From the IMG/VR virus record IMGVR_UViG_3300009184_000002: DNA of 64,000 nt. The stretch is one strand, 5' to 3'. Position 1 is the first letter of the stretch, and each line of letters starts with the position of its first letter. A program made the position numbers and the translations under genes. Positions 10,169-54,863 of the stretch are shown one piece after another. The notes below the pieces were generated by a model that was not told the origin of the DNA, did not search any database, and saw nothing but the letters and a program-made list of their open reading frames with translations. The stretch is from an uncultured virus (IMG/VR IMGVR_UViG_3300009184_000002). Lineage: Duplodnaviria; Heunggongvirae; Uroviricota; Caudoviricetes.

Positions 10169-10609
10169 TTAGTCTACAAAGGCTTTCATTTTCTGCGCAT
10201 ATTCAAACGACTCAATGCGAGAAATGATTTCACGGGCTTGCAATGTAATAAATACCACCGCACCACCATCATCACCAGGATCTACAACAAAACGATCACC
10301 GCCGTATTTAATTGTCCTTACTAAGTCACCTTCTTTACACCAAGGACCTTCGATCCATGGGGTTAAATCTTCTGGTGATCGGTACGCTAACGGACCAACT
10401 TGTACGACTTTAGCTACTGTCTCATTGAATTTCAAGGTTTGCTGAGTTTCCTCAACAAAAATAATGCCACCTTTGCTTTTTACCTTTTGTCGGCGCAACT
10501 GGACTAAAACTCGATCTCCAGCTACTTCAACACCATGATCTATGAAAGGAAAACATTCTTCCTCGCTACGAAGATCTGGTTCTTCGTTACTTTTAACATC
10601 TATTGCCAT
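10169..10609 (-). CDS. groES: Co-chaperonin GroES-like protein
   Basis: GDRVLVQ...KSKGGII...AKVVQVGPLAY...CKEGDLV...KYGG are Cpn10 motifs. Confidence 0.85.
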   Translation of the reverse strand: MAIDVKSNEEPDLRSEEECFPFIDHGVEVAGDRVLVQLRRQKVKSKGGIIFVEETQQTLKFNETVAKVVQVGPLAYRSPEDLTPWIEGPWCKEGDLVRTIKYGGDRFVVDPGDDGGAVVFITLQAREIISRIESFEYAQKMKAFVD

Positions 10610-17522: not shown

Positions 17523-17769
17523 GGTTTTCTTTCAATCGTTCACGCTTGCCACGTGTCATCCGAATGGGTTTTCCATCCTGCCGCCGTTTTTTGTGCTTAA
17601 TAAATCGATCCCTAGTTTCAGCGGCTTTAAACGCTTCTGGGCTTAACCATTGTTCATAGCGGTAGCCATTGCTCCCGACTTTGGTTCTATAGTTAAAGAA
17701 CCGATAGCCGTCTTCTCGCATATCGCCATATTTGAAGGGTTCGTTTGTGGTTGGATTGTTTCTCTTCAT
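17515..17769 (-). CDS. Hypothetical basic protein, first gene of the packaging operon (probably leaderless)
   Basis: ATG is 4 nt downstream of the promoter -10 box; PFKYGDMREDGYRF. Confidence 0.55.
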   Translation of the reverse strand: MKRNNPTTNEPFKYGDMREDGYRFFNYRTKVGSNGYRYEQWLSPEAFKAAETRDRFIKHKKRRQDGKPIRMTRGKRERLKENRV

Positions 17770-17773
17770 ACAA

Positions 17774-17806
17774 CTACTTATGCAAATTCTATATCAAAAC
17801 CGCCCT
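17774..17806 (-). promoter_or_regulatory. Phage-specific (late) promoter
   Basis: AGGGCG-N16-TGCATAAGTAG. Confidence 0.8.
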
Positions 17807-17847
17807 GCCCAATATTTTGATATAGAAGGAGGCAGGGTATCCACGAT

Positions 17848-18192
17848 CTTATTACTATATCAACGCTATCCTGTCACCCTGTGAGCCATACTGGGCGTGC
17901 CCTATCCACGGTATCCATAGTATCCACGGTCAAAACACACTTAGGGGGTATATGTGTTTCTCTATTTTATTAAAAAATAAAAAAATAAAGAAATACTATG
18001 GATACCCTGTCTTATTACTATATCAACTATATAGAATAAGGGCTGGCGGGTCGTTTTGGAGACACCATGCGATTTTGTATCCTGTCACCTTATTACTATA
18101 TCAAACACACTTTATCTTTTAAAAACAAAAACTTAGGAGCGTTTTTAGGAGACAGGATGCACTTTTTGTATCCTGTCTTATTACTATATCAA
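17848..18192. repeat. Iteron-like direct repeats plus inverted repeat around an AT tract (ori/pac candidate)
   Basis: CTTATTACTATATCAA at 17848, 18011, 18089 and 18177. Inverted repeat GGTATCCATAGTAT (17910-17923) / ATACTATGGATACC (17993-18006). Confidence 0.75.
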
Positions 18193-18327: not shown

Positions 18328-18580
18328 GAAGTGAGTACTTACTAACCGGATTGGCGCACCAATGTGGTGCATAGGCGAAGTGAGTACTCACTAACCTGGC
18401 CAGCGCACCAATGTGGTGCATTGATATGTTGCACCGCACCAAGTTAGTGGACGCTTACATTGCCAATGCACCAATATGGTGCAGCATGTAAGTGAGTACT
18501 TACTAACCTGGCCAGCGCACCAGTTTGGTGCATCAAGTGAGTGCATACTAACAGTTTGCTCAGCGCACCAGTTTGGTGCA
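18328..18580. repeat. Tandem ~49-bp operator-like array with five NtrC-consensus boxes
   Basis: YGCACCA-N3-TGGTGCA at 18355, 18404, 18467, 18516 and 18564, alternating with AAGTGAGTACTTACTAAC-like elements. Confidence 0.85.
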
Positions 18581-18961
18581 TGATGCGTGCGTGAGAGAGC
18601 GGTAGGGTATTCCCTTAGTGGATTACCCTAACCACCATGCACCCGTTGTACCAATACAACACACAGGGTAAACACCTATTGACAATCCAGTTGTTGTAAA
18701 TATGCAACACCTAGCCTAGGGTAAACCCTAACGATCAGATCGTGCCATATTGAACGATCGACAATGCCCTAATGCAAGTAGATCAAGTGAGAGCAAAACC
18801 GCTCTAATGCCCCATAAACCCGCTTAAAATCGATTGCCTATTTTTTAGGCAACCTGGCCAGGGTAAACCCTATTAGGGTTAATATATTTAAAATTTACTG
18901 TATAAGTGATTTAAAATTATGTTAGTAGTAAATTTATTAAACAATTACACAAAGGGAATAT

Positions 18962-25850: not shown

Positions 25851-26018
25851 ATACTTAGTTTATGAGGATGGTGAGCTAGTGCGTAAGTTTGCCTCACGCA
25901 TTGAATGCGAACCATACCTCAGAACTGGGTGTACGCTCAAGGTCTTACCCAAACCTAAGAACCCAACACCAACGATGATCATGCAACACGCTCATCAATT
26001 ATGCGGAGATGCCCCCTT

Positions 26019-26594
26019 TTGAAAACAAGAAAGAACTCACTCTCAGATTACATGAGATCGCTATATGGAATACCCACGCTTACAGTAATAGAAGAGCGAA
26101 ACCTGGCCGACCGAATTGCAACAGGGGACGAGCTTGCGCTGGAAAAGCTAGTGACTCACAACTTACGATTTGCAGTCACGACTATTAAAAACACCCCAAC
26201 TTGGAGGCATTCTGGAGTTGACATGGAAGACCTAATTGGGTTTGGCAACGAGGCATTGCTCCTTGCAGCCCGAAAATGGAAACCCATTAACGACATTCGT
26301 TTTGTGTCATATGCTCGCCAAGTAATTCTTACCGAAGTCAATCGGGGTGTGGCAAACACCAAGAATCTAATTCGTCTACCAGTAAATGTGACCGAAGAGA
26401 TACGGCGCATGAGGTACACCGAAAGAACATTGAGTCAAGAACTGGGAAGAGAACCAAGCTACCACGAACTTGCTCAAAAATTAGGCGTGTCACCATTGCG
26501 TATTGCTGAACTGAATGGTATACTCGACAAAGAACCCATTAGTTTGGAAAATTTCAATACAGAGCATTTAGGAGATGAGGGATATGACACTTGA
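26019..26594 (+). CDS. Sigma70-family factor, regions 1.2/2/3 only (no region 4)
   Basis: SLSDYMRSL, ALEKLVTHNLRFAV, EDLIGFGNEALLLAARKW, RFVSYA, LIRLP, LSQELGREPS..ELAQKLG, EPISLE, then a stop about 13 aa later. TTG start inferred from a GGAG RBS. Confidence 0.85.
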   Translation: MKTRKNSLSDYMRSLYGIPTLTVIEERNLADRIATGDELALEKLVTHNLRFAVTTIKNTPTWRHSGVDMEDLIGFGNEALLLAARKWKPINDIRFVSYARQVILTEVNRGVANTKNLIRLPVNVTEEIRRMRYTERTLSQELGREPSYHELAQKLGVSPLRIAELNGILDKEPISLENFNTEHLGDEGYDT

Positions 26595-26931: not shown

Positions 26932-28341
26932 ATGAAATACTTATCAGTATGTAGTGGAGTCGAGGCGGCTACTGTAGCATGGCACGACCTTGGGTGGAAA
27001 CCGATTGCCTTCTCGGAGATCGAACCTTTTCCATCAGCAGTACTAGCACATCGTTTTCCAAACGTTCCCAATGTAGGGGACATGACTAAATATAAGGAGT
27101 GGAACTTAAATGATTCAATCGACCTTCTCGTGGGAGGCACACCTTGCCAATCCTTCAGCGTCGCTGGGCTTAGAAAAGGACTTGAAGACCCAAGGGGTAA
27201 CCTCATGCTTACCTATGTGGGCATTCTTGACAAATTTAGACCCAAGTGGTGCGTTTGGGAAAATGTGCCAGGTGTCCTCAGTTCAAACGGAGGACGGGAT
27301 TTTGGTTCCTTCCTTGGGGCGTTGGTCGAACTCGGGTATGGGTTCGCCTATCGGGTGCTTGACGCTCAACACTTTGGAGTACCACAAAGACGCAGAAGAG
27401 TCTTCGTTGTTGGATGTCTTGGAGACTGGGTTAGTCCCGCAAAGGTTCTTTTTGAGTCAGAAAGCTTGCTCGGGAATTCTAAGACGGGCAGAGGTAAGAA
27501 ACAAGACTCTTCCGCCACTTCTACATCAAGCACTGAAATCAATGGCGGAGCAGACAGAATAGCTCATGCTATCTCAACCAAAACAAGACATGATCCTACA
27601 ACCAATACGCTGATCCCTTGTCCACCCGATGGAAAAGATACCATTGGAACTTTGATGGCTCGGGATTACAAAGGTTTTGGAAACCAAGACATGAAAGACG
27701 GACGAGGATTAATTGTTTATGAAAACCATCCCACTGATTCTCGAGTCCGAGAAATGGGGTCTGTATGTACCACTGTTACTGCGAGATGGGGAACTGGTGG
27801 TGGGAATGTGCCTTTTGCTCTGGCAGAAAATACCATTGGAAGACAACCCATGAATGGCGGTAACGGCAATGGGTTTACTGAAGGTGGGCCGATGTACACT
27901 CTGAATGCTACTGGCGTACATGGTGTGGCGTATGGGTTTGAACCCGGAATTGCCAAGCGTGACGGCAACCCAAATCGTTTTGTAGAGGATAAGACTCCAA
28001 CATTGCGTGCCAATATGGGTGACAATCAAACGGCTACGGCATACGCAGTTGATGTGTATAACCAAGCGGTTGATGGTGATGTGGCTGCTACACTAACAAG
28101 TGCGTGCGGTGGTACAAACACAAGCGGACCTAAGCTCATGCAGAACATGGCGGTGCGTAGGCTTACTCCAATTGAGTGTGAGCGGTTACAAGGCTTTCCC
28201 GATAACCACACCAACATTCCTTGGCGTAAGAAAGAGGAGTCGCCCGATGGACCACGCTACAAAGCGATGGGCAACAGTATGGCAGTGCCAGTAATGCATT
28301 GGCTTGGACAACAAATTCAACAAGTGGAGGTATTATCATGA
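26932..28341 (+). CDS. dcm: DNA (cytosine-5) methyltransferase, large subunit
   Basis: Motif I LSVCSGVE, IV GGTPCQSFS, VI WENVPG, VIII PQRRRRVF, IX RRLTPIECERLQGFPD, X GNSMAVPV. Confidence 0.92.
   Translation: MKYLSVCSGVEAATVAWHDLGWKPIAFSEIEPFPSAVLAHRFPNVPNVGDMTKYKEWNLNDSIDLLVGGTPCQSFSVAGLRKGLEDPRGNLMLTYVGILDKFRPKWCVWENVPGVLSSNGGRDFGSFLGALVELGYGFAYRVLDAQHFGVPQRRRRVFVVGCLGDWVSPAKVLFESESLLGNSKTGRGKKQDSSATSTSSTEINGGADRIAHAISTKTRHDPTTNTLIPCPPDGKDTIGTLMARDYKGFGNQDMKDGRGLIVYENHPTDSRVREMGSVCTTVTARWGTGGGNVPFALAENTIGRQPMNGGNGNGFTEGGPMYTLNATGVHGVAYGFEPGIAKRDGNPNRFVEDKTPTLRANMGDNQTATAYAVDVYNQAVDGDVAATLTSACGGTNTSGPKLMQNMAVRRLTPIECERLQGFPDNHTNIPWRKKEESPDGPRYKAMGNSMAVPVMHWLGQQIQQVEVLS
27110..27562 (+). 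CDS. Nested alternative-frame ORF, probable beta subunit of the C5-MTase
   Basis: 150 aa in another frame ending LLDVLETGLVPQRFFLSQKACSGILRRAEVRNKTLPPLLHQAL, with AGGAG/GGAA upstream. Same arrangement as M.EcoHK31I alpha/beta. Confidence 0.6.
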   Translation: MIQSTFSWEAHLANPSASLGLEKDLKTQGVTSCLPMWAFLTNLDPSGAFGKMCQVSSVQTEDGILVPSLGRWSNSGMGSPIGCLTLNTLEYHKDAEESSLLDVLETGLVPQRFFLSQKACSGILRRAEVRNKTLPPLLHQALKSMAEQTE

Positions 28342-29878: not shown

Positions 29879-32188
29879 ATGAAACCAAAGACATTACCCG
29901 TTCTATTTCAGAACATACCGCTAGGATTGCGGTCAGTACCAAGATGGACACTATGGAATTATGTATTGATTGGTGAAGGCGATACCCAACGCTGGTCAAA
30001 ACTGCCAGTACAACCCACTGGCAAAGCAGCCAGTTCAACTAACGCAACAACATGGACAGACTTTCTGAGTGCAGAAGCTGCCTACTTAACTGGGAGATTT
30101 GATGGCATCGGCTTTGTGTTCACTGGGGACGATCATATTATTGGTGTCGATCTTGATGATTGTTTTGATGATGTAAGCAACCAATTCACCAATGCAGAAC
30201 TAAAGGGCATTGCAGACGGCATTCAAGGTTACATGGAAATCAGCCCATCGGGTACAGGTGTGAAAATATTTACCCTAGCTGATCTTCAAGGTGCTCATGT
30301 GGATCACGATAAGGGATTGGAGATTTACCCCAAAGGTCGGTACTTCACTGTTACGGGTCACAAACTGAGTGGTGAATTACCATCTGAGTTGCAAGACATT
30401 ACTCACCTTATTCCAGAACGAACAGTCCGCTCATCAGGCGATGCCTTTGCAGACTACAATCCACCCCTAGAAGGGTGGGACATGGCCAAGGTAGAGGCAG
30501 AGCTACTCCCACAGTTTGATCCTCACTGTGGGTACACAGATTGGCTCCAAATGGGTATGTGCCTACACCACCAGTTTCAAGGCGATCTAGAGGCTTGTGA
30601 GATGTGGGATCGTTGGTCGTATGGTGACGGCAGTGTAGTGAATTACACTACGAATGCTTGTGAGAACAAGTGGAAGACATTTAACCAAAAAGGTGGTGGT
30701 GCGACATTGCGTACACTAACCTTTAAGATCTCACAAAACAATCGTAGCGAGGCACTAGCCAAGGGTGACTTGATTCTTGGTGTAGCCCCAATGGAAAACG
30801 CTCAGACATTCTTGGACGCTAAATTCTCATGCGAAGAGGGAGTCAAACTGGTTCATTACAGTAGTGACTTCTTTGCTTACAAGGGCACACACTATGCAGA
30901 CATGGAAGAGTCTACAGTACGCTCAGATCTATACAAGTTTTTAGATCGTTGCAAAAAACAAGATCGTAAAGGTAACATCGTGCCGTTCGCACCAAACCCA
31001 GCCAGTGTGAGTGCTGCTATGGACGCTACTAAAGCATTAGTACATTTGGAGAACCATGCCAACACACGGCCACCAGTATGGCTCAATGGTTACAGTGCCA
31101 ATCGACCCGAGGCAAGCAAACTGGTAAGTTTAAAGAATGGTTTGTTTCATTTGGAAGACAACATCCTACTGCCACACTCATTAGGATTCTTCACACAAAA
31201 CTCGTTGCCATTCTCATATGACCCGTTGGCACAGTGTCCGCAGTGGTTACAATTTTTAGATGATGTGTGGTCAGAAGACCAAGAGTCAATTGATTGCTTG
31301 CAAGAAATGTTTGGGTACATTTTATCAGGGGATACACTACAACAGAAATTCTTTAATATTATTGGACCAAGACGCTCGGGTAAAGGAACAATCAACAAGG
31401 TGTTGGTTGAATTGCTCGGTCAGCATAATACTGTAGCACCAGAATTAGGAGAACTTTGTGATACCTTTGGACTTCAACCTTGGCTCGGAAAACTTTTGGC
31501 ATCTTTTACTGATGCTCGTGCTCCTGATCGTGACAGGGGTGCCGTTGTTAGTCAGCTATTACGTATTGTTGGTGGGGATACTGTTACTATCAATAGAAAA
31601 AATAAAGAAGCATGGAACGGCTACCTACCGACACGCATTGTTATTTATTCAAACGAAGTTCTTCAGTTAACAGAATCGTCTAACGCACTTACTGGTCGCA
31701 TGATCGTACTAAAAATGAGCAAGTCTTTCTACGGTAAAGAAGACACCGCTCTGTCAACCAAATTGATGGCTGAACTATCGGGCATTTTTAACTGGGCGAT
31801 GGTCGGCTTGCATAAAAGAATTGAGCGGGGTGGTTATTTTGTACAACCTACCACGGGTCAAGAGTTATTAGAAACCATGGAAGAGATGAGCAATCCGATT
31901 GGGTCATTCATCGAAGACGCTTTGGAATATGAAACGGGTGTTGAAGTAGATAAAGACGATGTATTCCTATGCTACAAACGATGGGCGGTTAAGCATGGAC
32001 TTACACCAGGAAATGATTTATCATTTAAGCGTAGATTCCTTGCAGCTACTCAAGATAAAGGTGTATCGGCAACTGCAATAAGAATCGATGGTAAGCGTCA
32101 ACACAAGTACAGTGGTATGAAACTAAACGAAAAGGCTCAAGCATTTATCAACAAGCAAACTATGTTTGATGAAGAGGAATTATTTTGA
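29879..32188 (+). CDS. Primase-polymerase (AEP) / PriCT / D5-type SF3 helicase
   Basis: IGVDLDDC, EISPSGTG, EIYPKGRYFTVTG; WLQMGMCLH..WDRWS (PriCT); GPRRSGKGT Walker A. Confidence 0.9.
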   Translation: MKPKTLPVLFQNIPLGLRSVPRWTLWNYVLIGEGDTQRWSKLPVQPTGKAASSTNATTWTDFLSAEAAYLTGRFDGIGFVFTGDDHIIGVDLDDCFDDVSNQFTNAELKGIADGIQGYMEISPSGTGVKIFTLADLQGAHVDHDKGLEIYPKGRYFTVTGHKLSGELPSELQDITHLIPERTVRSSGDAFADYNPPLEGWDMAKVEAELLPQFDPHCGYTDWLQMGMCLHHQFQGDLEACEMWDRWSYGDGSVVNYTTNACENKWKTFNQKGGGATLRTLTFKISQNNRSEALAKGDLILGVAPMENAQTFLDAKFSCEEGVKLVHYSSDFFAYKGTHYADMEESTVRSDLYKFLDRCKKQDRKGNIVPFAPNPASVSAAMDATKALVHLENHANTRPPVWLNGYSANRPEASKLVSLKNGLFHLEDNILLPHSLGFFTQNSLPFSYDPLAQCPQWLQFLDDVWSEDQESIDCLQEMFGYILSGDTLQQKFFNIIGPRRSGKGTINKVLVELLGQHNTVAPELGELCDTFGLQPWLGKLLASFTDARAPDRDRGAVVSQLLRIVGGDTVTINRKNKEAWNGYLPTRIVIYSNEVLQLTESSNALTGRMIVLKMSKSFYGKEDTALSTKLMAELSGIFNWAMVGLHKRIERGGYFVQPTTGQELLETMEEMSNPIGSFIEDALEYETGVEVDKDDVFLCYKRWAVKHGLTPGNDLSFKRRFLAATQDKGVSATAIRIDGKRQHKYSGMKLNEKAQAFINKQTMFDEEELF

Positions 32189-32394
32189 AAAAGTTAAAAG
32201 TTGTTTATGAAGAAGGGTGTTTTGATGAACTGGCGGAAGAAATGACGCAAGAAGAAATCGATGCACTAACAAAAGAAATTGAAGATTTAGCTGATAGTGG
32301 TGAGCTATTTGAAAACTCCCAACAATTATCCGAAGAAGAGTCAGACATGATATTAAGAAGACTAGACAACATGGAAAAGAATAAAAGACAATGA
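32185..32394 (+). CDS. Small acidic hypothetical protein
   Basis: 69 aa, E/D-rich. Confidence 0.55.
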   Translation: MKKLKVVYEEGCFDELAEEMTQEEIDALTKEIEDLADSGELFENSQQLSEEESDMILRRLDNMEKNKRQ

Positions 32395-32942
32395 AAAAAC
32401 TATATCGTGTTTTTAGTGTGCCTATTTTTCCAGCAAACATTTATATTTGTTTGGATGAAGCTGGGTTTAGGCAATTACTCAAAGATAAAAATGTGCCACA
32501 AAAAATAGAGTACCTTGAGGGTGGTGCTATGGCCGAGGTTCACTCAACCCCTACCGCAGACGGACGCACGCTGATATCTTTAATAATAGATCTGAGTGCA
32601 ATTGACGATTTGGATGCTACTTTAGTACATGAATCAGTACACCTTGTGTATCGCATATTTGAATACATGAATGAAGAAACCCCGGGCGAAGAGATTCGTG
32701 CTTACTTAACTGAATACATTTTTAAAGAGGTTAGAAAAATTTTAGATGAGCCTAATATTAGAAAAAGATATAGAAAAATACTTGAACAAAAGAATCAAGC
32801 AGTTATCGGGGCTCTCATTCAAATGGCTGAGCTCGGTGACGGGAGTGCCAGATCGGATAGTGATCCTAAACCAAAAAGTAATGTTCGTAGAACTAAAAAC
32901 AGAAACGGGAAAGTTATCACCAAGACAAATCCTCGTGTTTGA
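32391..32942 (+). CDS. HExxH-motif protein (putative metallopeptidase)
   Basis: TLVHESVHLV...EEIRAYL. Confidence 0.55.
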   Translation: MKKLYRVFSVPIFPANIYICLDEAGFRQLLKDKNVPQKIEYLEGGAMAEVHSTPTADGRTLISLIIDLSAIDDLDATLVHESVHLVYRIFEYMNEETPGEEIRAYLTEYIFKEVRKILDEPNIRKRYRKILEQKNQAVIGALIQMAELGDGSARSDSDPKPKSNVRRTKNRNGKVITKTNPRV

Positions 32943-33024
32943 TGAACTGGGAGAAGCTGGATTTCCAGTGCATATCTTAAGATCATACGACGATATTGAG
33001 GAGTTTATTCGTGGCACAAACTAA
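32746..33024 (+). CDS. VRR-NUC domain nuclease
   Basis: EKDIE...GVPDRIV...FVELKT..GKLSPRQ. Confidence 0.85.
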   Translation: MSLILEKDIEKYLNKRIKQLSGLSFKWLSSVTGVPDRIVILNQKVMFVELKTETGKLSPRQILVFDELGEAGFPVHILRSYDDIEEFIRGTN

Positions 33025-33706
33025 AAAAGAAATACAACTTAATACTATGTTTCGTGATGCTAGAACTAGGTCACGAAAAAACAATCTACCGTTTAATATA
33101 ACAAAAGAACATTTAAAATCCATTGCCACGGATCAGTGCCCAATTTTTAAAACTCCTTTTGAGTGGGGACATTCAGGATTAGGGAGCGGTAAATGTAAAC
33201 CTAATGGACCACAGTTAGATCGTATTGTTCCAGAGTTAGGATATGTAGAAGGAAATGTAGCATTCATATCACACAGAGCAAATAGAATTAAAGACAATGG
33301 TACAATGCAAGATCATTACGACATCGCAGACTGGATATGGGCTAACACACATGCTGGACAAAAAGAATCTACATCCGTATCAAAACAACATTCTGGCCAA
33401 AGCAGAAAAGATGGCGCATCTAGGTTTATTCCTCGAGCCAGGATTGGGCAAGACTGTAACGGCTCTCACCATCATAGCGAACAGCCCGAAAGGAAGAACA
33501 CTGATTGTGGCACCAAAAAGAGTTGCAGAATCTGTGTGGTCTCAAGAGACAACAAAATGGAAACACTTGTCGCATCTTACCGTTTCAACAGTTTTGGGGA
33601 GCCTTTCGAGACGCTTGAGCAGTTTGCAAGAAAACTCGGATGTGTATGTTATCAATGTGGAGAACATTCCTTGGTTAGTAGAGAACTGGCCAGCGAAAGG
33701 ATTTGA
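33011..33706 (+). CDS. Putative His-Me-finger (HNH-like) endonuclease
   Basis: CPIF...PQLDRIVPELGYVEGNVAFISHRANRIK. GTG start after GAGGAG. C-terminal half overlaps the helicase gene. Confidence 0.7.
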   Translation: MAQTKKEIQLNTMFRDARTRSRKNNLPFNITKEHLKSIATDQCPIFKTPFEWGHSGLGSGKCKPNGPQLDRIVPELGYVEGNVAFISHRANRIKDNGTMQDHYDIADWIWANTHAGQKESTSVSKQHSGQSRKDGASRFIPRARIGQDCNGSHHHSEQPERKNTDCGTKKSCRICVVSRDNKMETLVASYRFNSFGEPFETLEQFARKLGCVCYQCGEHSLVSRELASERI

Positions 33707-34682
33707 TTACCTCATTGTTGATGAGTCATCTCGCTTTAAAGACAGCAGTACAAAAAGATTTAAAGCTATCAAAAATGTGTTAAAAAGTTTTAAACGTCGT
33801 ATAATTCTTACTGGTACACCCACACCACAAGGGTATGGGGATTTATGGAGTCAAGTAACAATCCTAGATCTGGGGCAACGGCTGGAAACCAGCCTTACAA
33901 AGTTTAGAACTAAGTATATGCGTCCAAGTCGAGTGAATCCCCATACCCGAGTGGTGTACAACTGGGAGCTTATCCCCGGCGCTGATACAGTAATACAAAA
34001 CAAAATTGGTGACATTTGTATGTCACTTAAAGCAGAGGATTATTTAAATCTACCCAAATGTACCTATGTATACCACAGTATATCTTTAGACAAAGATGTT
34101 AGAGAAAAATATGAGCAACTTAGAAAGAATATGGTCGCTGAGATCGGTAAGAGGCAAATCACAGCTCCAACAGCAGCGACACTGGCGAACAAACTCCTCC
34201 AGTTCACATCGGGCGCTGTTTACGGAGAAGATGGAGAAGCGCAAGAAGTACACCGCGCTAAACTGGAATATCTTGAGTCGATCATGGAAGAGTCTTCCTC
34301 CCCTACGCTGGTCTTCTATCACTTCAAGCACAGCCTCAATAGGATACGTCTTCAATTCCCGCAGGCTGTGGTGCTGGACGATGACAACATTACAGCGTGG
34401 TGTGACGGCAAAATTCGTATGCTCCTTGCCCATCCCCAAAGTGGGGGAATCGGGCTTAATCTTCAGTGCAACGTTGGTGAGACGGCCCAAACGGTGTGGT
34501 TCGATTTACCATGGAGCTCAGAAAACTACATCCAGGCCAACGCACGGATTTATCGCCAAGGGCAAGAAAAACCGGTTATTATACACCATCTAACAGTGTC
34601 TGACAGCATTGACAAACATGTAGTAAAAGTATTAGAAGGTAAGATCAATTTACAAGATGCATTAATGGAATCATTAAAATGA
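33351..34682 (+). CDS. SNF2-family helicase
   Basis: LHPYQ, EPGLGKT, IVDESS, LTGTP, GIGLNLQ, QANARIYRQGQ. Confidence 0.9.
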   Translation: MLDKKNLHPYQNNILAKAEKMAHLGLFLEPGLGKTVTALTIIANSPKGRTLIVAPKRVAESVWSQETTKWKHLSHLTVSTVLGSLSRRLSSLQENSDVYVINVENIPWLVENWPAKGFDYLIVDESSRFKDSSTKRFKAIKNVLKSFKRRIILTGTPTPQGYGDLWSQVTILDLGQRLETSLTKFRTKYMRPSRVNPHTRVVYNWELIPGADTVIQNKIGDICMSLKAEDYLNLPKCTYVYHSISLDKDVREKYEQLRKNMVAEIGKRQITAPTAATLANKLLQFTSGAVYGEDGEAQEVHRAKLEYLESIMEESSSPTLVFYHFKHSLNRIRLQFPQAVVLDDDNITAWCDGKIRMLLAHPQSGGIGLNLQCNVGETAQTVWFDLPWSSENYIQANARIYRQGQEKPVIIHHLTVSDSIDKHVVKVLEGKINLQDALMESLK

Positions 34683-34969
34683 CAGAACAAGAACTAATTG
34701 TATTGATTAATGAAATAGTGTTATTGGCAACCCCATTAAACTCCAACATGGTTGATATTCAATCATTGGACGATAACCTAGCAGATACGGGCTTAGACAG
34801 CTTGGATATGCTGATGGTAGGGATATACCTTGGCGATGTCTACGGAGTCTCTGAGGACGATTTAAAGGCTATACAAGCAACTACAGTAAGACAGTTATTT
34901 GAGTACATGTGTCAACACAAAACCAAAGAACCTAAAACAATAAAAGAAGCATTGGAATCTATTCAGTGA
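34679..34969 (+). CDS. acpP: Acyl carrier protein
   Basis: Acidic 96 aa with LADTGLDSLD phosphopantetheine attachment motif and ATTVRQL. Confidence 0.8.
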   Translation: MTEQELIVLINEIVLLATPLNSNMVDIQSLDDNLADTGLDSLDMLMVGIYLGDVYGVSEDDLKAIQATTVRQLFEYMCQHKTKEPKTIKEALESIQ

Positions 34970-36072
34970 TTTACTTAACTGATTATCAAACTGCGTCTAC
35001 AACAGATACACATATGATCGAGGATATAAGCTATCCCCAGCGTGTGCATTGGTTTGCAGATACCTACGCCAGAAAAGACACTGGCTTAGTGTACGCGCCC
35101 CACAAGTTAGCAGAAAAGGTTTTAAATAAAACTCTTTTAGTAGACTTAAAAAACCGTGGTGGTAAGACAGCCTTTATTTTGGCCGCGGGTAATCAACATT
35201 TTGCCGGTATCAACCCCAAAGATTCAGAACCAAACAGTCTAGCATACGATTACAAAATGCTACCCCTCACACTAACTCAAGTGTATGCTGGTCGAATTGC
35301 CCAAGCTTGTGGTGCTGAAGATATGGTGATTACAGATGCCAGTGCCTGTGCGTCTAGCCTTAAAGTGATGATGAATGTACACGAGCTATTTGCTCTCTAT
35401 CAATTTGATAGGGTGATCGTACTGGCCGTGGAAGACGCCGTGTCCAATCCAGTATTAAAGTTCTTTGGTGAATCCAAAGCAGTACTTACTAAAGAGCAAG
35501 AAGAACAAGGCGTTTTACCATCGGCATTTGACCAAATTAATTTTGGTTTTAACATTGGTCAAGGAGCGGTATTCGCTGTATTTGAAAATGAAAAATATGC
35601 AAAGAACCCTCATGCTCGGTTGCTTGGTGCGTACAGTGCATCGGAAAGAAGTACTAACGCTATTGGTCAGCGTGAAGACGGAGAAGGATTTATTAAAGCC
35701 GCGCATGGCGCAATGTCTATATCTAAAATTAGTCCCCGTCAAATAAACATAATAAAGACCCATGGTACAGGTACAAAATCAAACAATACTGCGGAACGCA
35801 ATGCTCTTAAAACATTATTTGATCACCGCTTTGTAGCAACATCATATAAACAACGAATTGGACACACCATGGGTGCGTCAGGTTTATTGGAAACTTGCTT
35901 GCTGTTAGACAACATTAAAGATTGCCTAATAACGCCAATTAAAAACAGAACTCAGAGAGACAGTGTCTTCATATCAGATCCGTTGCATATTTTTGGACCA
36001 CAAAAAATACTTTCCTTGGCAGCGGGAATGGGTAATATTTACTCGGCAGCAATTTTTGACACACAACTATGA
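34966..36072 (+). CDS. Beta-ketoacyl-ACP synthase (FabB/FabF-like)
   Basis: Intact Cys-His-His triad: SACASS, KTHGTGT..N, SYKQRIGHTMGASG; also GFNIGQGA and AGMG. Confidence 0.88.
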   Translation: MIYLTDYQTASTTDTHMIEDISYPQRVHWFADTYARKDTGLVYAPHKLAEKVLNKTLLVDLKNRGGKTAFILAAGNQHFAGINPKDSEPNSLAYDYKMLPLTLTQVYAGRIAQACGAEDMVITDASACASSLKVMMNVHELFALYQFDRVIVLAVEDAVSNPVLKFFGESKAVLTKEQEEQGVLPSAFDQINFGFNIGQGAVFAVFENEKYAKNPHARLLGAYSASERSTNAIGQREDGEGFIKAAHGAMSISKISPRQINIIKTHGTGTKSNNTAERNALKTLFDHRFVATSYKQRIGHTMGASGLLETCLLLDNIKDCLITPIKNRTQRDSVFISDPLHIFGPQKILSLAAGMGNIYSAAIFDTQL

Positions 36073-36368
36073 GAATAACAATAAATTGCAGTAAACCTCG
36101 TTTATCGGATGAGGAGATGGATCCGATTGAGCAAGATGATGTTGATGGAGTATCGCACCACCAGTCTGAAGGGTGGTTACCATGGGATCTTGACGATCTT
36201 ATAGATATTAAGCGTATAATAGACGAGCGCATGCCTTTTAAACAAAAGCAAGTGCTAGAAGGATTTCTCGTCGGGATGAGTTTTACCGACATGGGAATGA
36301 CGGAGAAATATTGGCGGTATCATTACGACAAAGCGGTAGAATTTATTCAAGAGGAACTGGGCACATGA
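36069..36368 (+). CDS. Sigma region-4-like HTH protein
   Basis: Acidic linker followed by IIDERMPFKQKQVL...GMSFTDMGMTEKYWRYHYDKAVEFI, resembling sigma4 with a shortened HTH. Confidence 0.5.
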   Translation: MRITINCSKPRLSDEEMDPIEQDDVDGVSHHQSEGWLPWDLDDLIDIKRIIDERMPFKQKQVLEGFLVGMSFTDMGMTEKYWRYHYDKAVEFIQEELGT

Positions 36369-36550
36369 GCACATATATTATTGAACACAATTATAAGGGC
36401 AGTTATGTTATGGAGACGATTGCTGGTGTGGAAGACATTGACACGAGCATATACAAAGATTTATTGGGAATCTGGGTTTGTGATAGCCCGGAAGAAGTTA
36501 AAGCAGTCGAAGATGAACTTAAGAGGTTAAGAAATGCACGACCCAGTTAA
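36365..36550 (+). CDS. Hypothetical protein
   Basis: ORF coupled to the upstream gene by ATGA. Confidence 0.5.
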   Translation: MSTYIIEHNYKGSYVMETIAGVEDIDTSIYKDLLGIWVCDSPEEVKAVEDELKRLRNARPS

Positions 36551-36758
36551 TCATCCCAAACATTATCAAGGCAAAGTAGAGTGCATTGATGCCATTGAGT
36601 CTGCTATTGAAGGACTTAGTGGCATGGAAGCAATGTGCACAGGCAACGCTATTAAGTATTTATTTCGTTGGAAACAAAAAGGTGGCGTAGAAGATTTACG
36701 CAAAGCAAAGTGGTATATTGATAAAATAATTAATCATGAAGTGGAGTGTGGAAAATGA
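36534..36758 (+). CDS. DUF3310 (T7 gp1.7-like) protein
   Basis: DPVNHPKHY...ECIDAI...GNAIKYLFRW..KGGVEDLRKAKWY. Confidence 0.85.
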   Translation: MHDPVNHPKHYQGKVECIDAIESAIEGLSGMEAMCTGNAIKYLFRWKQKGGVEDLRKAKWYIDKIINHEVECGK

Positions 36759-37725
36759 TAGTAGAAATTGATGACGATTGTGCAGATCAAATCTTGGTGT
36801 CCAGTTTAGCTTGGGCTTATGTAAGTTTAAGTCGAGATTTAAAAAATCCAAACAAGTGGCATGAAGATGACATTGAGCATTGGAAACAATTACTACCAGC
36901 ACTTAAGTTGGTAGGTCAATGGTATAGCATTGACTTTGATGCCGAAATAAAGAAGGCAAAAAAGAAATGAAAAAGTACACACACTTTGATTTAGAAGATG
37001 CTATTTACAAAGTATGGCAAACAGCCGATGATATTGAAACATTGTTTATGTATCATGGTGACGCAGAAAAGCCAATGACAGAAGACGAAGTGGCAAACGC
37101 ATTACTTGGTTTGAAATCTTTGCATAATATGCGTTGTTGGCAGTTGATGGATATGTCAGCAAGAGTATTTGAATTAAATCAGTATTGCACTGATCCAAAG
37201 AAGTTAGCAGCAAGAGAAGCCATGCTTGGCGAGGCACTAGATTTTTTAAATACAGCAGAACCAAAAGTTAAAATGAAAGGTAAGAAAAAATGAGTGAGAA
37301 AGAGCTCCCGTCAGTAGATGACTTTGTAGTAAATTTAGAGTTTGCAGTAAAAGATGTAAACACATTATTGAATATTTTAAATATGCCAAGCCAAGCACCA
37401 GTAGTTACTTTGGCCGCGTTTATCAATGGTATCCAAATGCAAGCAGGTCCGCAAGTACAAAAAGCACAAGACAGCTTAGCGGCTGTAGCAAAGGCTCAAG
37501 ATGAACCTCAAGCAACTACTTAGAAACGCTGGCATCAGCAACAACATCATTAAGGAAGTGGAGCGTAAGGCAAAACAAACCAACGCCCAAACAGAGCAAG
37601 AGCACCAAGAAAAGGCTATGGCTATGACCAAGATGATGTTGAACGATGCCCTTCGTTATCGTAAAGAACATGGTGACAACACGCCACCATCCAAACCTAA
37701 AAAAACCATAATCATTCCAAATTAG
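36746..37725 (+). other. Four hypothetical CDSs (36746-36970, 36967-37293, 37290-37523, 37501-37725)
   Basis: Coupled ORFs, no recognised domains. Confidence 0.55.
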
Positions 37726-37756
37726 GGCGAAAAAGGTTAAAAGTTTGCATAAGTAG
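37724..37756 (+). promoter_or_regulatory. Phage-specific (late) promoter driving the TerS operon
   Basis: AGGGCG-N16-TGCATAAGTAG. Confidence 0.8.
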
Positions 37757-37827
37757 ATATGGGAGTACAACTCGTTGTGAAACGCTTGGAAACCTATTCT
37801 TACACACAACACACAGAAAGAAATAAA

Positions 37828-51727: not shown

Positions 51728-54109
51728 TTATTTTCTCGCTTTACGTTTTGCGTCTGTCAAATATGACAAGGGACCTTTACTATCGGGGGGTAGACGACGA
51801 CCACTTGCTTTACGCTTATGTTCTCTAATTACACGCAAAAACTCGTCTAAGATTTTTGCACCTGAATCATTACTACCATTACCTAAATTGGATACCACAT
51901 CCGCTGGAATTACAAACTCACCGTTTGCTAACATAGCCGGTATACTATCACTAGTGCCGTCACCAGAGCCTTTAACATAACGGTTATCTAAGGAAGCACC
52001 ACCCTCAGAATAAAACTGTGGCTCAAATTTACTATTTACTCCAAAATGCCCGTCATTAAAACCAAACTGATTTTCCATTATGCCACCATCGGCTTTAGTT
52101 GGGAGACCAGCTAAATTATAGCTCACATTGTGTTTGGTTAACGCTGCGGTCAGCGGAGTGTCACTAATATTACCGTAGTTATACTCACCTTTATCATTAA
52201 ATAAAGAAGATGAATTTTTAGATGTAGTGGATCCACCAGTTGCGTAATGAGAAAGTCCTGCTAAATCATAATCCATAGGCCTTGTTAAACCCGGTGTTAA
52301 ATTCATTAAACCTGGATTAGTAGCTTGGTTATTTAATTGCTGTGCTGCCAACGCTGATCCACCTACAATGCTACCTAATCCAGAACCAATACCGCCCGAT
52401 CCTCCACCACCTCCAGAACCGCCCGATCCAGAGCCGCCGCCAGCAGTGGGGGGCAACACTGGTTGTATGACAACGGGGCTATTACCACTACCATCGCCAG
52501 AACCGCCCGATCCAGAGCCATCACCGGTACCAGCAATAGGGCCATTACCATTACCGTTACCTGTGCCATCGCCGGGAATTGGTACATTATTACCAGCATC
52601 AATAGGACTACTACCGTTACCACCACCGTTTATAGGAACCGATATTCTTTCACCAGTAGTATTGTTATACGCCCAAGTGCTACCATCTGGAGGCATGACA
52701 GTTGTGTATGCCATTGGTCTATCTAAATTTGGTGGTTGAAGCGAATACCCCTCTGGCACATTCGGTGTTGTTGTAGTGGTAGGCAATCCACCATCATTTG
52801 TATTTTTATCAACACCATCAATTGTTGCAGCTAATGCAGTATCTAATGGAGATGTGTAAGTACTACCATCTTCATTTACTGGTTGACCATCGTTATTACT
52901 AAATCCAGTTGGACTTGTTTTATCAGGAAATGCTTCTGGAGCATTAGCCGCTGGAGTAACTAAAGGAGTAGTCGGTGCTTGAAAATCATCAGCACTAGTT
53001 ACAGTAACACTACCATTAGAAGCCAATGGAGCATATGCGGGTAATGTTGGATCAGAAGCACCTTGTGCTAAAGCTTTTGCTTCATCTGGATTAAACCCAG
53101 CGTCAATAGCGGCTTTGTAATTTGGGTCTTGTGTAATATCAGCAGTTTGTGTTGAGGAAGGTGATGTTGTGTCTAGTGAATTTAAACCACCCTTAACAGC
53201 ATCATAGCCAGCACCAACACCTTGATTAACTAATGAACCACCAGCACTAGTCAAAGCCGCGGTTAGTGGATCGCCACCCATAATAGCTGCTTTAACGGCA
53301 CCCAATCCAGCGCTAGTAATTGCTGGGTTGACATCAGTAGGCATTAGATTAGAAACTGCGCTACTGGTTCCACCAGAGATACCACCAATCAAAGCACCAG
53401 TTAACGGATCACGACCACTTAATACAGCACCCGTTGCACCGCCAGCCGTACCACCAGCAACAGCACCAATTGTTTTGGCGTAATCAGCTAAATCTGTACC
53501 AGCGGTTAAGCCACTAGCATAGCTACCAATACCACCGCCAACAGCACCAGTTAACGCACCGTTAACAGCACCTTGAAGAATGTCACCACCAGTAATAGCA
53601 GACTTAGCAGCACCAATTGCGGCACCTTTAAGTGCTCCTGTTGCAGCAGATTGTAGGGCGGCTTGTGCTGCAGTGCTACCTGCGGCTGCGGCTTCTACAG
53701 TAGCTCCAGCGGCGGCAACACCTTCGGCGGCGGCAACACCAGCGGTAGCAGCTTCGGCGGCAGTTGTTGCTGCAACAACTTCACCAGCTGTGCCCGCGGC
53801 TAAGGCTTCACCTTCTAAATTCACAGTACCAGCAGTAGCAATAGTTGCTGCAATAGCACCGACCATATACCAACCACCGGGGATAACATCGTTAACTACT
53901 TGGTCAACAGCCGCACCAGCTTCACCTATTGCGGGACCAGGATCTATTTGAGCAAACGCATCAGATACACTTTGTGCAGCATCTGAAATGCCAGAGCCTA
54001 CCGATTCAACAACATCACTACCAGCATCAATAACGGATTGACCAATGTCACCTACCGAACTAACGGTATCGCTAACAAAATCCGAAACTGAATCAGCAAC
54101 GGAACCCAT
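51728..54109 (-). CDS. Internal virion / membrane-penetrating ejection protein
   Basis: Starts MGS. Glycine-zipper hydrophobic region. C-terminal GSGDGTSDSIPAMLANGEFVIPADVV motif also seen at tape-measure C-termini. Confidence 0.65.
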   Translation of the reverse strand: MGSVADSVSDFVSDTVSSVGDIGQSVIDAGSDVVESVGSGISDAAQSVSDAFAQIDPGPAIGEAGAAVDQVVNDVIPGGWYMVGAIAATIATAGTVNLEGEALAAGTAGEVVAATTAAEAATAGVAAAEGVAAAGATVEAAAAGSTAAQAALQSAATGALKGAAIGAAKSAITGGDILQGAVNGALTGAVGGGIGSYASGLTAGTDLADYAKTIGAVAGGTAGGATGAVLSGRDPLTGALIGGISGGTSSAVSNLMPTDVNPAITSAGLGAVKAAIMGGDPLTAALTSAGGSLVNQGVGAGYDAVKGGLNSLDTTSPSSTQTADITQDPNYKAAIDAGFNPDEAKALAQGASDPTLPAYAPLASNGSVTVTSADDFQAPTTPLVTPAANAPEAFPDKTSPTGFSNNDGQPVNEDGSTYTSPLDTALAATIDGVDKNTNDGGLPTTTTTPNVPEGYSLQPPNLDRPMAYTTVMPPDGSTWAYNNTTGERISVPINGGGNGSSPIDAGNNVPIPGDGTGNGNGNGPIAGTGDGSGSGGSGDGSGNSPVVIQPVLPPTAGGGSGSGGSGGGGGSGGIGSGLGSIVGGSALAAQQLNNQATNPGLMNLTPGLTRPMDYDLAGLSHYATGGSTTSKNSSSLFNDKGEYNYGNISDTPLTAALTKHNVSYNLAGLPTKADGGIMENQFGFNDGHFGVNSKFEPQFYSEGGASLDNRYVKGSGDGTSDSIPAMLANGEFVIPADVVSNLGNGSNDSGAKILDEFLRVIREHKRKASGRRLPPDSKGPLSYLTDAKRKARK

Positions 54110-54552
54110 TAGGCTTGCTCCTTAACTAGTTGTACAGTAACTTGATACATCTTTCCATCTTTTGATTTTTGGACAGCGTATCCCATGCCTTCGGGTTTAT
54201 CTCGAGCAATGGCTTTAAATATGTTCAAAATAGTAGGATCTTCAAATTGAGTTACCATCACTTTGTAACCCTTTGCTTTCATTTGATCCGTAAATTTTTT
54301 ACTATGTTCAATATAATTTTTAGCTGTGTCGGCGTTTAAAGCACGAAAAAAAACATAGCCAACTCTGTCTTTTTGTGGGTGTACAATAAACACAGTGTTA
54401 CCCATGCGAACTGAAAATGCACCGGGCAAAGTTAATTCTTTCATGACAGCTACAAAAGCAACATGCATAGGATATTTAGACTTCGTCTCTTTGACAGAAA
54501 TCTTGACAATATCCTCAAACTCCAGTTGTTCTTTTTTGCTGTCGACTACCAT
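54109..54552 (-). CDS. Putative GNAT-like acyltransferase (positional analogue of T7 gp13)
   Basis: 147 aa alpha/beta protein between nozzle and first ejection gene. The fold is inferred from position and pattern only. Confidence 0.4.
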   Translation of the reverse strand: MVVDSKKEQLEFEDIVKISVKETKSKYPMHVAFVAVMKELTLPGAFSVRMGNTVFIVHPQKDRVGYVFFRALNADTAKNYIEHSKKFTDQMKAKGYKVMVTQFEDPTILNIFKAIARDKPEGMGYAVQKSKDGKMYQVTVQLVKEQA

Positions 54553-54577
54553 CTTAGCCTTTATGTTTGTCCTATAT

Positions 54578-54610
54578 CTACATATGCAAATATTAGGGTG
54601 TTTTCGCCCT
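54578..54610 (-). promoter_or_regulatory. Phage-specific (late) promoter
   Basis: AGGGCG-N16-TGCATATGTAG (1 mismatch). Confidence 0.75.
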
Positions 54611-54863
54611 ACTGAGAAGGACCATTAATAATCTGAGTAAACTCTAACGCCCAATCCTGCCAATTCTCATACAAATCGGGATCCGAAACTGGGTACACGG
54701 TAAAGCGTGGAAGCTGGGATACATTCTTAGCTACCATTTTCCAATCGTTTTCATCAGTAGTATAAGGAATAAGTTCTGTTCCAAAATACATGATTAAGTT
54801 ACCATTCCAATGTTGCCAATCCATGCCCTCGGGATTAAACGGAAAAAATATTTGCTGATCCAT
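54609..54863 (-). CDS. Small tail protein
   Basis: Trp-rich 84 aa ending YENWQDWA, after the nozzle gene. Confidence 0.55.
   Translation of the reverse strand: MDQQIFFPFNPEGMDWQHWNGNLIMYFGTELIPYTTDENDWKMVAKNVSQLPRFTVYPVSDPDLYENWQDWALEFTQIINGPSQ

Follow-up and report, generated by a model that had tools for sequence, protein, structure and literature searches.

The 64,000-nucleotide stretch of DNA analysed here (the window; IMG/VR record IMGVR_UViG_3300009184_000002) comes from an uncultured tailed phage and encodes an acyl carrier protein (ACP) followed directly by a ketosynthase (KS). These two genes are a virus-only, widespread and uncultured kin of specialised ACP/ketosynthase systems, and their link to modification of the phage ejection machinery is putative. 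We give a probability of roughly 55% to the reading that the pair is a phage-owned supply unit for acyl-ACP that uses the type II fatty-acid synthesis (FAS II) enzymes of the host, with a GNAT-fold protein encoded elsewhere in the window as the likely recipient of the acyl chain.

The assignment of both genes held up well. A first, sequence-only reading had described an ACP translationally coupled to a FabB/F-like ketosynthase with intact catalytic residues, and both open reading frames (ORFs), the motifs it named and the 4-nucleotide (nt) coupling were confirmed (Table 1). The overlap is GTGA between ACP and KS, and ATGA both between the upstream SNF2 gene and the ACP and between the KS and the downstream 99-aa (amino-acid) ORF. 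In hidden Markov model (HMM) searches, all three expected domains scored above the cut-off of 20.8 bits: PP-binding (PF00550) in the ACP with 23.0 bits, and ketoacyl-synt and Ketoacyl-synt_C in the KS with 38.0 and 58.5 bits. Ser41 of the ACP aligns with the phosphopantetheine serine of the DSL motif in solved ACPs, and P19, D40, S41 and D43 are invariant among 30 sequences with identities down to 26%. Judged from this alignment, the ACP is a carrier that retains its predicted phosphopantetheine serine. Similarly, Cys128, His266, Lys295 and His300 of the KS fall on the four catalytic residues (Cys, His, Lys, His) of solved FabF. When the query was aligned with 31 representatives (32 sequences, identity down to ~30%), C128, H266 and K295 proved invariant, H300 was found in at least 90%, and the family motif PSAFD..N.GF was fixed. 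The catalytic Cys, His and His claimed from the window are thus invariant, or nearly so, across a deeply diverged family.

The predicted structure of the KS (pLDDT 93.9, pTM 0.94) matches FabF, KasA and the ketosynthases of type II polyketide synthases (PKSs) over its full length in Foldseek (E ~1e-23, TM 0.75-0.83), with 16-20% identity to solved KSs over ~410-430 aligned columns. Because the model matches along its full length, the N-terminal 98 residues that sequence profiles miss still belong to the thiolase fold. As modelled, the KS is a full thiolase-fold condensing enzyme carrying the triad and the lysine of decarboxylating (malonyl-ACP-using) ketosynthases. Elongating ketosynthases have a Phe with a gatekeeper role in a C-terminal GFGG motif. 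At this site, the FabF sequence 'sfGfGg' aligns with 'aaGmGn' in the phage family and with AGMGN in the window KS, so that Met replaces Phe.

Both proteins are far removed from their housekeeping counterparts. The ACP obtained 18 bits against the equivalog model TIGR00517 (cut-off 70.45) and does not reach the score of a housekeeping AcpP; the KS obtained 106.8 bits against the FabF equivalog TIGR03150 (cut-off 493.75) and 47.1 against FabB NF005935 (cut-off 630). The sequence-only reading had allowed that the genes might be near-identical, recent copies of host acpP and fabF. This origin is ruled out by the scores, which lie far under the cut-offs, by the lack of any cellular relative in our searches and by the restriction of the family to viruses: the proteins are very divergent from FabF and AcpP and occur in related phages on hundreds of contigs.

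To begin with the KS, a word-indexed search returned 1614 matches at E<=1e-5. The best 120 of these are all family members of ~368 aa, 62-97% identical to the query and all metagenomic, and the longest contigs among them often span 52-68 kb. An exhaustive HMMER search recovered 48 KS clusters (at the 50% identity level) at E<=1e-30, beyond which the scores drop to multi-domain PKSs and ordinary KSs. IMG/VR contains at least 549 confirmed KS relatives, and three deeper scans of this database returned 251, 141 and 539. Among prokaryote genomes (one for each of 185,579 species), 94 candidate KS stretches were retrieved and none was confirmed. We also searched 50,697 deposited phage records with the window KS and with three deep-branch members. 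The outcome was the same for each query: a single record, the metagenome-assembled 57-kb MW202545.1, carries a family member, and the other KS matches are FabF/FabB-like at 23-29% identity. Every one of the 64 ACP relatives is metagenomic and belongs to the same family. The ACP and KS form a large virus-only family under strong purifying selection, always found together; it spans hundreds of deeply diverged contigs with intact catalytic residues and has no cultured member.

We next compared gene order around the KS in a non-random sample of 219 distinct KS loci, taken from 294 (the best 80 per scan) and annotated with local HMMs. The pairing seen in the window extends to related phages: all 215 distinct loci with room for it have an ACP gene upstream of the KS, adjacent in 214 of them. 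In the sole non-adjacent case, a DUF2269 integral-membrane ORF is found between ACP and KS (L180:1179-1637). Downstream of the KS, 144 of the 204 loci with room carry a homologue of the ~147-aa gene found at 54109-54552 in the window, 54 share the window arrangement, and six have another neighbour. In the more common arrangement (type B), the order is tail protein, 84-aa ORF, ACP, KS, 147-aa gene and large ejection-type proteins. In the window arrangement (type A), the order is SNF2, ACP, KS and 99-aa ORF; the 99-aa ORF directly follows the KS in 52 of the 54 loci and an inserted FabZ in the other two. The sequence-only reading was right to place an SNF2-type helicase directly upstream of the pair, as supported by the PF00176 match and the overlap with the ACP gene. 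The replication operon did not stand as the home of the pair, whose usual place is the virion/ejection operon, and the GNAT-fold gene at 54109-54552 had been missed.

The window still keeps the 84-aa and 147-aa genes adjoining one another at 54109-54863. The gap between them (54553-54608) is too short for any coding remnant of an ACP or KS, and holds a short inverted repeat (TAGGG...CCCTA) just past the stop of the 84-aa ORF. The latter matches no Pfam or PHROG family and could be a further partner of the pair. The complementary picture comes from the complete type B genome G003 (68 kb), which has a related replication module and in which the homologues of SNF2 and the 99-aa ORF are directly adjacent and ACP-KS is found elsewhere; therefore, only the two-gene pair moved. 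The same adjacency rules out the 99-aa ORF, itself without a Pfam or PHROG match, as a part of the module.

A maximum-likelihood tree of the KS, built from 105 rows after identical sequences were dropped (the window is represented by the identical L003), separated all 43 type A rows from the rest by a single branch (UFBoot 100, SH-aLRT 92). One change of arrangement was obtained in 100% of 200 bootstrap trees. Under midpoint rooting, the type A branch is nested within a paraphyletic type B, with deep clades outside, and type A KSs differ by up to ~40%. With the caveat of the midpoint root, the tree indicates that the ACP-KS pair would have moved once, from the virion operon to the replication operon, and would then have been long retained. 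The usual and ancestral place of the family is apparently the virion/ejection operon, beside the GNAT-fold gene. Since the pair moved alone and was kept, ACP and KS form a functional unit; in its present position, it would be co-transcribed with replication genes.

Several relatives have added enzymes to the pair. In two type A loci, a true FabZ is inserted between the KS and the 99-aa ORF (L152:7124-7555 and L291:4168-4632), scoring 167 and 170 bits against NF000582 (cut-off 113) and 167 and 166 bits against TIGR01750 (cut-off 155). In three loci of another lineage, the KS is followed by a ferritin-like di-iron protein of ~268 aa (L166:5561-6367, L178:6193-7002 and L186:6503-7312) with paired EExxH-type motifs and sub-cut-off matches to Rubrerythrin, FA_desaturase_2 and AcsF. 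We considered an acyl-ACP desaturase for this protein and rejected it, as the matches are weak and below cut-off (PF03405, E 5e-4); we left it as ferritin-like. A 2OG-Fe(II) (2-oxoglutarate-dependent) oxygenase follows the di-iron gene in one of these loci (L186:7309-7896), a cupin is found in L162, and an SU10-type portal gene follows the KS in L169 and L180. None of the KS neighbours in the 219 loci is a chain-length factor; they are ACP, GNAT-fold, 99-aa ORF, FabZ, di-iron and portal genes instead. Recruiting FabZ would make little sense if acyl chains were not truly assembled on this carrier, and the gain of FabZ or a di-iron enzyme by sister lineages thus argues that the chemistry is real acyl-chain chemistry.

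The gene that follows the KS in type B loci provides the candidate recipient. The model of the 147-aa protein (pLDDT 87.4) has GNAT topology, and its top Foldseek matches are GNAT acetyltransferases (E 5e-5, TM 0.5-0.6). VIA-align, which is independent of Foldseek, aligned 128 residues with Z 11.3 and a root-mean-square deviation of 3.0. It found 136 chains at Z>=8, and all 50 matches listed belong to the GNAT superfamily; the matches include the N-terminal acetyltransferases RimI, Ard1, NatA and Naa60/80, TofI, an acyl-ACP-using synthase of N-acyl homoserine lactones (AHLs), and an acyltransferase domain of a nonribosomal peptide synthetase (NRPS). Across 24 members of the family (alignment A2), 14 residues are invariant, among them E39, N52, T53, N73 and D75. 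Of the 20 KS-bearing records with a completeness of 90% or more, 19 carry the gene, and over all those searched 24 of 28 do; in deposited phages, it was found only in MW202545, which also bears the KS. Seen from the GNAT-fold gene, the KS is adjacent in 61 of the 74 loci with room upstream, and the slot is empty in 13. Twelve of these 13 are fragments of 11-63% completeness without a KS match, and the sole informative one (G006, 67% complete) carries its KS elsewhere.

The GNAT-fold protein and the ACP contrast in isoelectric point (pI), the former being basic (9.5) and the latter acidic (4.1); a predicted complex of the two scored 0.00 in two runs, made without controls, and speaks neither for nor against their pairing. 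The 147-aa protein has no PHROG family. Membership in PF11090 (T7 gp13) or PF11039/DUF2824 (P22 gp14) is unsupported, with none of the 24 members matching at E<=1, and the Atlas similarity of the family to DUF2824 clusters (0.93, 150 shared features) is a lead only. According to the accessible text of PMC6775973, a GNAT gene lies beside the internal virion proteins in SIO1 (pc40) and the Cobaviruses, where it is likened to T7 gp13; a GNAT in this slot is therefore not new in itself.

What the GNAT-fold protein might modify is suggested by its own neighbourhood. The order in the window is adaptor, tail proteins, 84-aa ORF, GNAT-fold gene, a 793-aa ejection-type protein and further large proteins without Pfam families; the counterpart of this block in MW202545 has a transglycosylase-domain protein at its end. 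The 793-aa protein starts with MGSVADSVSD and runs from an acidic N-terminus of V/D/S repeats, through long Ala/Gly-rich hydrophobic segments and a low-complexity middle rich in Gly, Ser and Asn, to a basic C-terminus. Its PHROG matches are weak and local, and to tape-measure families only (E 1e-4). Among 98 distinct homologues, the second residue is Gly in 44 and Ser in 45 (89 of 98 together), compared with 3.4% Gly and 9.2% Ser (12.6% together) in 714 further ORFs from these loci. The N-terminal consensus of the family is M-[S/G]-A-V-[V/A]-x-[A/F]-[V/I]-x-D-V-V, and conservation is higher over the first ~33 residues than beyond them. A small residue at position 2 is exposed by Met removal, and GNAT N-terminal acyl- and acetyltransferases act on such termini.

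Taken together, we propose the following route. The host phosphopantetheinyl transferase (PPTase), AcpS, would convert the phage ACP to its holo form, and host FabD, FabG, FabZ and FabI would provide malonylation and the reductive steps. The phage KS would condense an acyl primer with malonyl-ACP, such that a particular acyl or 3-oxoacyl chain would be parked on the private phage carrier and not on host AcpP. With less confidence, we suggest that the GNAT-fold protein may take the acyl-ACP as donor and transfer the chain to an amine acceptor. Speculatively, the most attractive acceptor would be a virion/ejection protein, for example through the Gly/Ser N-terminus of the coupled 793-aa protein. 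The complete version of this proposal, in which the private ACP and KS make the donor and the GNAT-fold protein places a fatty acyl group on the exposed N-terminal Gly/Ser, or on a lysine, of the leading, membrane-active ejection protein, thereby aiding envelope entry, is a tentative one that we consider unlikely. The broader suggestion of the sequence-only reading, a dedicated ACP/KS mini-pathway that borrows host FAS II, is consistent with all our findings; as possible ends of the pathway, it had named protein lipidation, membrane remodelling and a small molecule side by side.

Several observations weigh against the supply-unit reading. Pfam scans covered ~100 window ORFs; of the 102 ORFs listed, six small or antisense ones, at 17732-17884, 18444-18581, 32180-32440, 32983-33129, 33133-33297 and 37516-37812, lay outside them. 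As had been claimed from the sequence, a PPTase, FabD, reductase and dehydratase are absent at Pfam sensitivity; since the scanned ORFs include no PPTase, FabD, FabG or FabI, the scheme needs host enzymes that accept a very divergent ACP. A tRNA search of the window found none, and the best cellular matches of the relatives' FabZ are 42-54% identical and come from many phyla, thus giving no host signal. The replacement of the gatekeeper Phe by Met is a further difficulty, and neither chain length nor primer can be read from the KS sequence. As for the proposed recipient, neither the 147-aa protein nor the 24 members match a Pfam acetyltransferase family. GNATs bind acyl-coenzyme A through a loop with the motif Q/RxxGxG/A, which was not seen in A2 by inspection, the beta4-alpha3 segment being LNADTAKNY, without a Gly motif. 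In view of these two negatives, catalysis by the GNAT fold is not assured.

The link between the recipient and the pair is likewise open to challenge, as it comes from gene order and co-occurrence only, and the gene-order sample was not a random one. The relocated pair still looks functional at ~18 kb from the GNAT-fold gene and on the opposite strand, other genes follow the KS in six of the 204 loci, and a GNAT-fold gene could not be detected in G038, a complete KS-bearing genome of the lineage in which a di-iron protein follows the KS. Moreover, podoviruses with a GNAT in the corresponding slot are described with no mention of ACP-KS in the accessible text of PMC6775973, so the slot may be a hot spot for insertions. 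The Gly/Ser N-termini are only a lead, because the sequences that share them are homologous and non-independent.

Three other explanations were weighed against a supply unit that serves the GNAT-fold protein. The first holds that ACP-KS, with or without the GNAT-fold protein, makes a small molecule or lipid: an N-acyl amino acid, an AHL-like signal or an unusual envelope fatty acid. Acyl-ACP-dependent synthases of the LuxI or FeeM type would be the model for the GNAT fold in this case, and the fold indeed matches the AHL synthase TofI (3p2h) and the NRPS acyltransferase domain, each with Z 9.7. The accessory genes (FabZ, di-iron oxygenase-like, 2OG-Fe(II) oxygenase and cupin) vary by lineage as tailoring enzymes do, and the pair in the window sits among genes of replication and nucleotide metabolism, away from the virion genes. 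However, the family has its home in the virion operon, where the stop of the GNAT-fold gene overlaps the start of a large ejection-type protein, the sole Pfam hint (AHL_synthase, E 0.076) is non-significant, and LuxI-type synthases are larger than 147 aa. On balance, a small-molecule product seems unlikely to us.

Lower still we place the possibility that these are ordinary auxiliary metabolic genes, which boost bulk fatty-acid or phospholipid synthesis in the host and lie beside the GNAT-fold gene at an insertion hot spot. The intact FabF-like catalytic residues, the addition of FabZ in two relatives, the retention of the relocated pair and its proximity in the window to ribonucleotide reductase and other metabolism-type genes would all fit. 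In addition, acpP, fabF and fabG are listed as auxiliary metabolic genes of predicted roseobacter prophages in the accessible part of PMC8224337; yet those genes are host-like and keep the host operon order fabG-acpP-fabF (same source), whereas the present pair falls far short of the equivalog cut-offs, lacks close relatives in cells and makes up a clade restricted to viruses. A private ACP that is always present (215/215) would segregate a product from the bulk pool rather than feed it, and one condensing enzyme without FabD, FabH, FabG or FabI adds little flux. Non-catalytic decoys that sequester host FAS II enzymes or AcpS, halting lipid synthesis or a lipid-dependent defence, are very improbable. 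In their favour are the strong divergence of the proteins, the role of ACP as a hub with many binding partners in the host (PMC3340395, in its accessible part) and the contact of a phage ACP with host FabZ that is predicted in the accessible part of a preprint (10.64898/2026.03.01.708874). Against them, a decoy has no need of catalytic residues, yet Cys128, His266, Lys295 and Ser41 do not vary and at least 90% of members retain His300; the recruitment of enzymes like FabZ also suggests turnover. The home of the family in the virion operon likewise speaks against both the metabolic and the decoy explanation.

A supply unit of the kind we favour has a close parallel in the NodF/NodE proteins of rhizobia, where a specialised ACP is translationally linked to an equally specialised ketosynthase of the FabF-like Cys-His-His type. 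All other steps of the FAS cycle are borrowed from the host pathway, and the acyl-ACP is used by NodA, a distinct N-acyltransferase. The phage pair differs in being virus-only, and its candidate transferase has a GNAT fold, is not of the NodA family and is unlinked in the window. With FabF and AcpP, the pair shares the thiolase fold, the Cys-His-His triad plus Lys, both Pfam KS domains, the DSL serine and an acidic ACP; it differs from FabF in the length of the KS (368 aa compared with ~410) and in PSAFD..N.GF, which replaces the RPFD..RDGF-type motif. The KS/chain-length-factor proteins of type II PKSs (actinorhodin 1tqy and AntDE 6smo) are similar in structure (E ~1e-23, TM 0.76-0.80) and likewise have a stand-alone ACP beside the KS. 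Unlike these, the phage pair has no chain-length-factor partner, cyclase or aromatase in the window: a single KS was found, with no second KS-family ORF among the ~100 scanned.

For the transfer step, the HlyC/TAAT family of RTX toxins offers an analogy. These small GNAT-like enzymes take an acyl group from host ACP and place it on internal lysines of a membrane-inserting protein encoded next to them. The likeness is in the proposed logic only, and the carrier in the window is a private one. SIO1 (pc40) and the Cobaviruses share with our family a small GNAT-fold gene just ahead of internal virion/ejection genes, with no ACP or KS described there in the accessible text of PMC6775973.

Dedicated ACP/ketosynthase pairs are familiar from cellular pathways of specialised lipids and polyketides; tailed phages are not known to have one as a conserved module found in viruses only. 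We found no description of an ACP-KS(-GNAT) cassette in the open-access literature (supplementary files being outside this search); the only mentions of phage ACP or KS found there were in the accessible parts of PMC8224337 and of preprint 10.64898/2026.03.01.708874. The words 'acyl' and 'myristoy' are absent from a review of ejection proteins (PMC8954989). New here are the move of ACP-KS without other genes, the cassette variants with FabZ or a di-iron protein, the count of strict ACP-KS linkage and the conserved Gly/Ser N-terminus. If an acyl group is indeed placed on a virion/ejection protein, it would represent a new post-translational chemistry in phages and bear on how podophages cross the cell envelope. 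It would also parallel, in a bacterial virus, the myristoylated entry proteins known from animal viruses, with a lipidation system encoded by the virus itself.

Table 1 Positions in the window of the ACP-KS pair, the genes at its present site and those at its usual site.
Feature	Position	Strand	Description
SNF2-type helicase	33297..34682	+	PF00176 3.6e-24; upstream boundary of the insertion site, outside the module
ACP	34679..34969	+	96 aa, pI 4.1; phosphopantetheine-site Ser41 in GLDSLD; family-specific C-terminal tail HKTKEP...
KS	34966..36072	+	368 aa, GTG start; compact, FabF-like; Cys128-His266-His300 triad and Lys295
99-aa ORF	36069..36368	+	Bounds the insertion site downstream; native gene of the replication module
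793-aa ejection-type protein	51728..54109	-	Start overlaps the stop of the GNAT-fold gene; speculative candidate target
147-aa GNAT-fold protein	54109..54552	-	pI 9.5; homologue directly after the KS in most relatives
56-nt intergenic gap	54553..54608	-	Slot of ACP-KS in type B phages, empty here
84-aa acidic ORF	54609..54863	-	pI 4.05; homologues upstream of the ACP in type B loci

All of the window is phage DNA. Beyond the genes of Table 1, it encodes a terminase, a capsid protein, an SU10-type adaptor, lysozyme/M15/holin, a primase, a VRR-NUC nuclease, a DUF2800 nuclease, an Enc34-type single-stranded DNA-binding protein, ribonucleotide reductase and a family A polymerase. A consensus scan of 32900-36700, around the pair, found six promoter-like sites, compared with 10.1 expected from shuffled sequences, and no terminator-like site on the + strand.

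Other genes were observed in passing. The phage encodes its own sigma-70-like factor with regions 2 and 3 (26001-26594, +), near which lies a C5 cytosine DNA methylase (26932-28341, +). In the block of head genes, a 146-aa ORF (10169-10609, -) matches Cpn10, a GroES-like co-chaperonin, above the Pfam cut-off (E 7e-6), and the gene at the matching position of MW202545 is annotated 'chaperonin 10 kd subunit'. A 236-aa ORF with a TTG start (32996-33706, +) overlaps the first 410 nt of the SNF2 gene in another frame and has no Pfam match. Its N-terminal part shows, by eye only, an HNH-type nuclease-like motif, and it may be a shorter real gene that ends ahead of the helicase.

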